From assembly GCA_047456315.1 (NCBI GenBank), contig CP179889.1, forward strand, positions 320,776 through 384,775: a DNA stretch of 64,000 nucleotides. Reading direction: 5' to 3'. The DNA comes from Candidatus Nealsonbacteria bacterium (GTDB taxonomy: Bacteria; Patescibacteriota; Minisyncoccia; Minisyncoccales; JANBVM01). Positions 9,588 through 11,240 of the stretch are shown here, in pieces; position 1 is the stretch's first letter, and the number at the start of each line of letters is the position of its first letter. A program made the translations under genes and the position numbers. The notes under the pieces are model-generated. The model was given only the letters and a program-made list of their open reading frames with translations, was not told where the DNA came from and made no database searches.

Positions 9588-11126
<1,539 letters not shown>

Positions 11127-11240
11127 TAAAAATTGGTTGATAGAAGTTGAAGTCTGAAATTTGGATTTTAACTTTTGGGGAGTTGGTCGAAGTTTCTAAA
11201 AGATCGACTAGTTGGGATAACTCTAAGAAACTAATACTCA

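Follow-up and report, generated by a model that had tools for sequence, protein, structure and literature searches.

[quoted passage not shown]

A 64-kb stretch of DNA from a Candidatus Nealsonbacteria bacterium (64,000 nucleotides (nt), here called the window) contains a full-length 16S rRNA gene on the forward strand (9588–11126; Rfam RF00177 SSU_rRNA_bacteria, model positions 1–1533, 1393 bits). It is the only 16S gene that the Rfam search of the window recovered; further rrs copies had been raised as a possibility in the preliminary description of this DNA. The rRNA operon is split (9317–18788), and the 16S gene forms a unit with a separate promoter-like site, processing stem and terminator-like hairpin. 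The promoter-like site 5′ of the gene reads TTGACA-16-TACAAT, an 11/12 match in the promoter scan (9317–9344, forward strand). Downstream of the 16S unit lie a YbaK-like tRNA_edit gene (11311–11817) and a methyltransferase gene (11820–12395), both identified by Pfam, tRNA-Ile and tRNA-Ala (12386–12539) and a small ORF with no Pfam match (12557–12907). These are followed by a CYTH gene on the minus strand, a gene for an MS_channel_1st_1 protein (conserved TM helix, mechanosensitive channels), and the Rfam-annotated 23S (14754–18632) and 5S (18679–18788) rRNAs. A YbaK-like gene also lies 3′ of the 16S gene in several distant relatives. The 23S rRNA spans 3879 nt, compared with 2925 model positions, with smaller insertions near the 5′ domain, and it encloses a LAGLIDADG_2 homing-endonuclease ORF (17427–18110; Pfam); it thus carries an intron or insertion typical of CPR.

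The assignment to lineage rests on both protein and genome features. The DnaK of the window is 100% identical over 636 residues to an NCBI protein annotated 'MAG: Candidatus Nealsonbacteria bacterium', and the next named DnaK matches are to Nealsonbacteria or the 'Patescibacteria group'. NCBI places Nealsonbacteria in the Parcubacteria group (CPR), and CPR hallmarks are present in the window: a GC content of ~32%, a 16S gene set apart from the 23S gene by protein genes, an intron-bearing 23S and the presence of bL9.

Several other genes in the window merit a brief record. An RF1-type release factor gene with PKT and GGQ motifs (4109–4855, minus strand) encodes only 248 amino acids (aa). Its N-terminal domain 1 is missing, as shown by a Pfam PCRF match that begins at profile position 101, and the gene abuts rpmE (bL31; 4857–5081, minus strand), with no space for a missing exon. 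A release-factor form of 240–250 aa occurs in many relatives, including a Nealsonbacteria CG08 protein and a 'PCRF domain-containing protein [Patescibacteria group bacterium]', and the release factor has 345–360 aa in other Parcubacteria. A type II restriction-modification pair (N6_N4 methylase and TdeIII endonuclease; 29304–31281) and an OLD-family AAA/TOPRIM nuclease (34692–36491) form a small defence cluster in a genome of roughly 650 kb. Two ORFs about 6 kb apart (48464–49675 and 54776–56164) match exactly in the 35 nt upstream and share their N-terminal sequence (MNKNKTQQLSLILSVLLLSLLTAFL...); here a gene for a signal-peptide or membrane protein has recently been duplicated.

To define the 3′ end of the 16S rRNA, the region 10700–11400 was scanned separately with the Rfam covariance model. 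The 3′ end reads ...GGCACGGGUAGC-GGAA-GCUGUCCGUG-GAUCAC-UACAUUU, and positions 11107–11127 read GTCCGTGGATCACTACATTTT. Helix 45 (h45; CACGGGUAGC-GGAA-GCUGUCCGUG; 11090–11113, forward strand) is intact, with its conserved GGAA loop, according to the Rfam structure line, and is identical in three reference genomes described below (L010, L028 and L045). It is followed by GAUCAC (11114–11119), the conserved first part of the 13-nt 3′ tail, which is retained here and is invariant in 28 related sequences. The terminal 13 bases are GAUCACUACAUUU, compared with the consensus GAUCACCUCCUUU in the Rfam alignment, in which they stand opposite model positions 1521–1533 (GAUcACCUCCUUu) with posterior probability '*' at every base. 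The alignment sets ACUACA against ACCUCC, and thus the five positions of the anti-Shine–Dalgarno (anti-SD) core CCUCC read CUACA (11119–11123), whereas h45 and GAUCAC are intact. The preliminary description had read the same change of CCUCC to CUACA, with three of five positions altered, and the alignment bears this out; its concern that a misjudged boundary might hide a CCUCC finds no support in the aligned 3′ end. From 11120 to 11126, ending at the equivalent of the mature 3′ end of Escherichia coli, the tail is UACAUUU, which we call the replacement tail in view of its conservation across the clade. The interval 11001–11400 contains neither CCTCC nor CTCC, and the window has a single GGATCAC. 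The 16S rRNA of the window therefore has a recognisable h45 followed by a 13-nt tail that lacks CCUCC(U).

In the same alignment, the decoding-centre pair G1405:C1496 is A:U (near 11006, CCCATCAC, and near 11079, AAGTTGTAAC), a compensatory double change. Aminoglycoside resistance methylases of the ArmA/RmtB type act on G1405. C1496U is a rare variant, with 46 matches in 185,579 species genomes; we dropped it as a clade marker, given that the matches spread across many phyla and the relatives of the window account for 3 of the 46.

The precursor of the 16S rRNA extends ~110 nt beyond the tail and contains no anti-SD or CCUCC. A 5′ leader arm (9515–9546) and a 3′ trailer arm (11211–11239), both on the forward strand, fold into a pre-16S processing stem with a duplex energy of −53 kcal/mol, compared with −31.8 ± 4.9 kcal/mol for 200 shuffles, the lowest single shuffle reaching −51.1. 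A AGAGTTGTCCCGA-like motif is also present in the leaders of the relatives' 16S genes. A terminator-like hairpin found by the structure scan, AAAACAAGCCU-UUUU-AGGCUUGUUUU (11238–11267, no strand assigned), closes the 16S transcription unit. The processing stem and the hairpin both lie downstream, and neither contains an anti-SD, which argues that the 16S boundary is not misplaced. A pairing between the tail and the 5′ leader was considered, as GUAGU just 5′ of the 16S gene complements ACUAC, and was rejected because the motif is not conserved in the relatives' leaders.

We then examined how widely the replacement tail occurs. We scanned GTDB genomes, one for each species, with a pattern indifferent to the tail and obtained 46 loci. 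CTCC is present in 43 of these, all from other phyla; the remaining three (L010, L028 and L045) have 16S genes 93–96% identical to that of the window and share its h45 and the tail TACATTTT. A metagenome scan for a non-C base after GATCAC yielded at least 120 loci, and GATCAC-TACATTT(T/A/C) was found in at least about 60 metagenome contigs, which are independent assemblies from different studies. The occurrence of the same tail in the three GTDB genomes and these contigs shows that it is not a sequencing or assembly error. Among the metagenome loci listed, TACATTT-type tails stand on at least eight compensated variants of the h45 stem. The lineages with UACAUUU are 79–84% identical in 16S to one another and to the window, a range that we read as order- to class-level divergence.

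Two of the three genomic loci carry labels that probably do not fit their 16S genes, both of which are Nealsonbacteria-like and about 94–96% identical to that of the window. L028 (NJBH01000039.1), binned as Promethearchaeota Loki_b32, is probably a CPR contig mis-binned into the metagenome-assembled genome of an Asgard archaeon. For L045 (CAYVDD010000001.1), the label Candidatus Saccharibacteria is probably wrong, since its identity to L013, a locus with a canonical tail that also bears the label Saccharibacteria, is only ~69%. The metagenome scan also contained another CPR-like group of eight loci (L050, L056, L067, L098, L104, L126, L138 and L142), the tails of which read CAC-UUCUUAUCUAGAGAA or UUUCUUACUAGGAAA and are C-to-U degenerate anti-SDs. 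The trailers of these loci co-change (AGAGAA or AGGAAA), preserving the tail–trailer hairpin of canonical GAUCACCUCCUUUCUAAGGAG precursors.

Conservation of the replacement tail was measured in 28 full-length sequences, each with an identity of 75% or more to the window, taken from the loci listed and selected solely by a non-C first tail base. The seven tail positions are conserved at 0.96, 0.79, 0.79, 0.93, 0.96, 0.96 and 0.93, and their mean of 0.90 corresponds to the 58th percentile of all 7-nt windows in the 16S body. At the three bases beyond the tail, conservation drops to 0.57–0.71. That conservation stops at the equivalent of the E. coli mature end argues that the mature 3′ end has stayed at the E. 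coli-equivalent position and that all 13 nt of the tail are functional RNA. The anti-SD is replaced, not eroded, and UACAUUU looks like a product of selection rather than of decay. A search for an intramolecular partner of the tail in 32 full-length 16S sequences, in which the tail varies little, revealed no antiparallel run of covarying columns.

The mRNA side of the interaction was analysed in ORFs of at least 100 aa, with the first ATG taken as a crude start and rRNA masked, giving 56 ORFs in the 64 kb of this ~650-kb genome. As a positive control, the identical pipeline was applied to Bacillus anthracis pXO1, a GC-matched (~33%) Firmicute replicon (34 ORFs). Within −20 to −1, GGAG, GAGG or AGGA occurs in 6/56 window genes (11%), compared with 14/34 (41%) in pXO1 (Fisher P = 0.0013); at control positions, the frequencies are 7–20% in the window and 6–21% in pXO1, so that the starts of the window show no enrichment over their own controls. 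No window gene (0/56) has a 5-mer of AAGGAGGUG in −20 to −3, and 38% of pXO1 genes have one in −20 to −1. The mean duplex energy to the canonical tail is −1.76 kcal/mol in the window and −6.40 kcal/mol in pXO1 (P = 1.8 × 10⁻⁶). Window leaders bind the canonical tail more weakly even than their own control positions do (−1.76 versus −3.06, P = 0.0004), owing to their low G content (11% versus 20%). De novo k-mer enrichment recovered GGAG, AGGAG, GGAGG and GGTGA in pXO1, and nothing resembling a Shine–Dalgarno (SD) motif in the window or its relatives. In the 218 ORFs beside TACA-type tails among the metagenome loci listed, SD motifs occur in 12%, as against 14–18% at control positions. A first positive control, 43 canonical-tail loci mostly from high-GC bacteria and archaea, was uninformative (16% versus 12–20%) and was discarded because first-ATG start calling performs poorly in high-GC genomes.

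These data uphold the earlier statement that genes of this DNA lack SD motifs, and Pfam confirmed all of the gene identities on which that statement had drawn (dnaK, dnaJ, rpsB, tsf, rplI and lysS). The leader of dnaK (45150–45169, AAAACAAAAGAAAUAAAAAC), which had been quoted exactly, is A-rich and free of SD motifs. The last 20 nt of the dnaJ leader (47071–47090, aaaaaagtaaataagcctat) contain no SD core, and the leader of rplI, encoding bL9 (52109–52128, actaatcctgtaaatat...), likewise has no SD; all three lie on the forward strand.

The start regions have a composition of their own. Leaders from −20 to −1 contain 47% A and 11% G, compared with 35.5% and 19.9% across the window, and at positions −12 to −2 A reaches 48–61% and G falls to about 5–14%. 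U occupies position −1 in 36 of the 56 genes (64%, P = 1.6 × 10⁻⁶), whereas G is never found there (0/56, P = 8 × 10⁻⁴), and position +4 is A in 59% of window genes. Among the metagenome loci of the relatives listed (L047–L166), U is at −1 in 114/218 ORFs (52%). The U(−1) preference is compatible with an extended codon–anticodon contact involving A37 of the initiator tRNA. The folding energy of 40-nt segments is −1.8 to −2.0 kcal/mol at starts, compared with about −4 in the flanks, and the relatives show a similar dip at their starts.

Some genes have a promoter-like site so close to the start codon that little room is left for a leader. Using non-redundant predictions of a −35 element, a spacer of 16–19 nt and a −10 element with at least 9/12 matches, we found that the site ends 5–9 nt before the ATG in 15/52 predictions, compared with 1/45 when the anchor was shifted by 30 nt. 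About half of the 15 cases are orthologues of the YbaK-like gene, which reduces the independent count to ~8, and −10-like hexamers are frequent in AT-rich DNA. In the window, two independent scans located TTGTCA-17-TAGAAT (11274–11302, forward strand), which stops 8 nt short of the YbaK-like start codon (ATG, 11311) and marks a candidate leaderless mRNA, and the same arrangement is present in six orthologues (L084, L128, L068, L089, L114 and L133). A second candidate, from promoter prediction, is TTGACA-16-TAAAAT (approximately 28569–28597, forward strand), 6 nt before the ATG at 28604 of a LexA-like gene (Pfam Peptidase_S24/LexA). These arrangements are suggestive, without amounting to proof, that some first-in-operon genes are expressed as leaderless mRNAs. 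Gene packing is tight: at 19 of the 54 same-strand junctions, neighbouring genes overlap or lie no more than 10 nt apart.

We propose that translation initiation in this Nealsonbacteria lineage is SD-independent, that start sites are found by four routes and that the replacement tail is maintained by selection; we put the probability of this explanation as a whole at about 85%. Ribosomes of this type are unable to form an SD helix because the tail GAUCACUACAUUU stands in place of GAUCACCUCCUUA, and we regard this impossibility as shown, as far as rRNA sequence can show it. Start sites would therefore be chosen without SD pairing. In the first route, the region between about −20 and +20, being G-poor, A-rich and weakly folded, would let the 30S subunit load, possibly with the assistance of bS1. 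In the second, the initiator tRNA would read the AUG aided by the strongly preferred U at −1, which could pair with A37 beside the anticodon. Some operon-first genes would be transcribed as leaderless mRNAs, constituting the third route, and tightly packed or overlapping genes would be translated by coupling or re-initiation, the fourth. The tail itself would be kept by selection for a role other than sequence-specific pairing with leaders; ribosome assembly, 3′-end maturation and protein binding are candidates. The preliminary description had concluded that initiation here is SD-independent, which the tail and the leader statistics support, and that it relies on A-rich, unstructured leaders. 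The latter holds as one component rather than as the whole mechanism, since some genes look leaderless and many junctions are too short or overlap.

The most serious competitor, to which we give a small share of the probability, is that A-rich leaders touch the U-rich tail end (AUUUU) through A:U contacts of low specificity, an interaction that would be a degenerate substitute for the SD helix. The high A content at −12 to −2, the conservation of the UUU of the tail at 93–96% in the 28 sequences and the presence of AAAAT/AAATG-type 5-mers in 27% of leaders, compared with 11–21% at control positions, would all fit such contacts. However, A-richness climbs smoothly towards the start without a positional peak, avoidance of structure explains it equally well, and four or five A:U pairs add almost no stability. 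A-richness of this kind is also found in SD-independent lineages that retain CCUCC (Bacteroidota), which counts further against a contribution from the tail. 'AAAA' motifs were, moreover, discounted as uninformative by Amin et al. (PMC6107228).

A re-tuned interaction, in which the tail CACUACAUUU is an altered anti-SD and the mRNAs carry all or some of a co-evolved AAAUGUAGUG, which might overlap the AUG, appears very improbable. In its favour, the tail is conserved, and its complement, AAAAUGUAGUG, includes AAAAUG, much like an A-rich leader that runs into a start codon. Yet the leaders bind the actual tail more weakly (−1.55) than do control positions (−2.15) or shuffled leaders (−1.91), and 4- and 5-mers complementary to the tail are no more frequent than A-richness predicts, with none among the top enriched k-mers. 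Pairing in register with AAAUGUA also predicts A at −1 and UA at +4/+5, against the observed U(−1) in 64% and A(+4) in 59% of genes. A CAUUUU:AAAAUG pairing and a co-evolved SD are thus rejected on the duplex energies, the k-mer enrichment and the position-specific composition; the window contains no variant SD complementary to its variant tail, and Amin et al. reported no variant SD matching a variant anti-SD (PMC6107228).

Least probable of all, to the point of being negligible, is an artefact or non-functional copy (a mis-assembly, a wrongly placed boundary, a pseudogene, or a true 3′ end masked by an intervening sequence): CPR 16S genes often contain insertions, those of the relatives span 1417–3217 nt and the 23S gene of the same operon has an intron-like insertion with a LAGLIDADG ORF, but the Rfam alignment is full length and high scoring with no insertion near the 3′ end, the precursor lacks CCTCC up to the terminator with its processing stem and terminator intact, the same tail recurs in many independent assemblies from different studies, and the genes lack SD motifs, as a real tail would predict.

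Within the SD-independent reading, a more specific and tentative idea concerns the tail. It is possible, although we consider it the less probable case, that the anti-SD was replaced by a selected GAUCAC-UACAUUU element, common to a large and deep Parcubacteria clade, that plays a distinct part in initiation or in 30S biogenesis. The element may, for example, provide a dock for a lineage-specific mRNA-recruiting protein or factor, or may be tuned so that the mRNA exit channel stays open to A-rich or leaderless mRNAs. In that case, these bacteria would possess a distinct, conserved apparatus for start-site selection, not a degenerate one.

Textbooks explain how bacteria select start sites by SD:anti-SD pairing, and lineages without the rRNA half of this pairing are therefore natural experiments in how starts are found. 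There are practical consequences as well. Gene callers that rely on SD motifs will mis-call starts in such genomes, ribosome-binding sites will have to be supplied when CPR genes are expressed in E. coli, and 16S annotation pipelines anchored on CCUCC will truncate these 16S genes. Furthermore, the conserved tail makes a function of the 3′ tail apart from the anti-SD directly testable.

A comparison with known systems places the window among several lineages that initiate without SD pairing. Like the window, Bacteroidota have A-rich, G-poor and unstructured leaders with position-specific preferences in place of SD motifs. SD-independent initiation in this phylum was reportedly described in Flavobacterium johnsoniae, by Baez et al. 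in 2019 and Jha et al. in 2021. Most Bacteroidota retain CCUCC in the rRNA, where it is sequestered by ribosomal proteins. In the window, by contrast, CCUCC is not kept and left unused or sequestered: the 16S rRNA has lost the sequence itself. Mammalian mitochondrial small-subunit rRNA also lacks an anti-SD (PMC10582724). The mitochondrial mRNAs are leaderless or have very short leaders, and the ribosome is reduced; however, mitochondria are organelles with their own factors, whereas most genes of the window belong to polycistronic units and have A-rich intergenic leaders, and a minority have a leaderless appearance. Initiation dominated by leaderless mRNAs, in which a large share of genes is transcribed from the start codon or from a point a few nt away, is known from mitochondria, many Actinomycetota and archaea.

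Closer to the window are the bacterial taxa without an anti-SD, of which Lim et al. (2012) counted 15 and Amin et al. (2018) 128 (PMC6107228). Examples are Blattabacterium, Chryseobacterium/Elizabethkingia/Riemerella, some Mycoplasma, Carsonella and Hodgkinia, and these taxa also lack SD motifs and never have a matching variant SD (PMC6107228). The window shares with this class an intact h45 followed by a 13-nt tail without CCUCC, the lack of SD enrichment upstream of its ORFs and the lack of a complementary variant SD, but belongs to a different phylum. Moreover, the tail of Hodgkinia differs among copies, whereas the clade of the window keeps one replacement sequence across order- to class-level divergence.

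The earlier remark that complete loss of the anti-SD from the rRNA is uncommon is accurate for bacteria in general (PMC6107228) but not for Parcubacteria, in which it is common and already published (PMC9297842). There, CCTCCT was detected in only 48% of Parcubacteria, and those lacking it largely coincide with the group lacking uL1, in which SD helices are presumably not formed (Tsurumaki et al. 2022, RNA 28:1041, PMC9297842). The window belongs to the same group and shows the same absence of CCTCCT after h45 at the 16S 3′ end. All CPR reportedly also lack uL30; the rplK–rplA region, relevant to uL1, and the S5–L15 junction of the ribosomal protein cluster both lie outside the window. Beyond this study, we found no literature on anti-SD sequences, SD motifs or leaderless mRNAs in Patescibacteria, Parcubacteria or CPR, and no published account of which sequence the replacement tail has, of how well it is conserved or of upstream statistics for these lineages, although the supplements of PMC9297842 may contain one. 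As far as its accessible part goes, Tsurumaki et al. give the presence or absence of the motif and the link to uL1, whereas the replacement sequence, its conservation and the upstream regions come from the present analysis. Because the loss is already known for Parcubacteria, the window is one confirmed member of a described group, and the points of interest that it adds are a conserved substitute tail and, along with it, the U(−1) preference and the leaderless signals.
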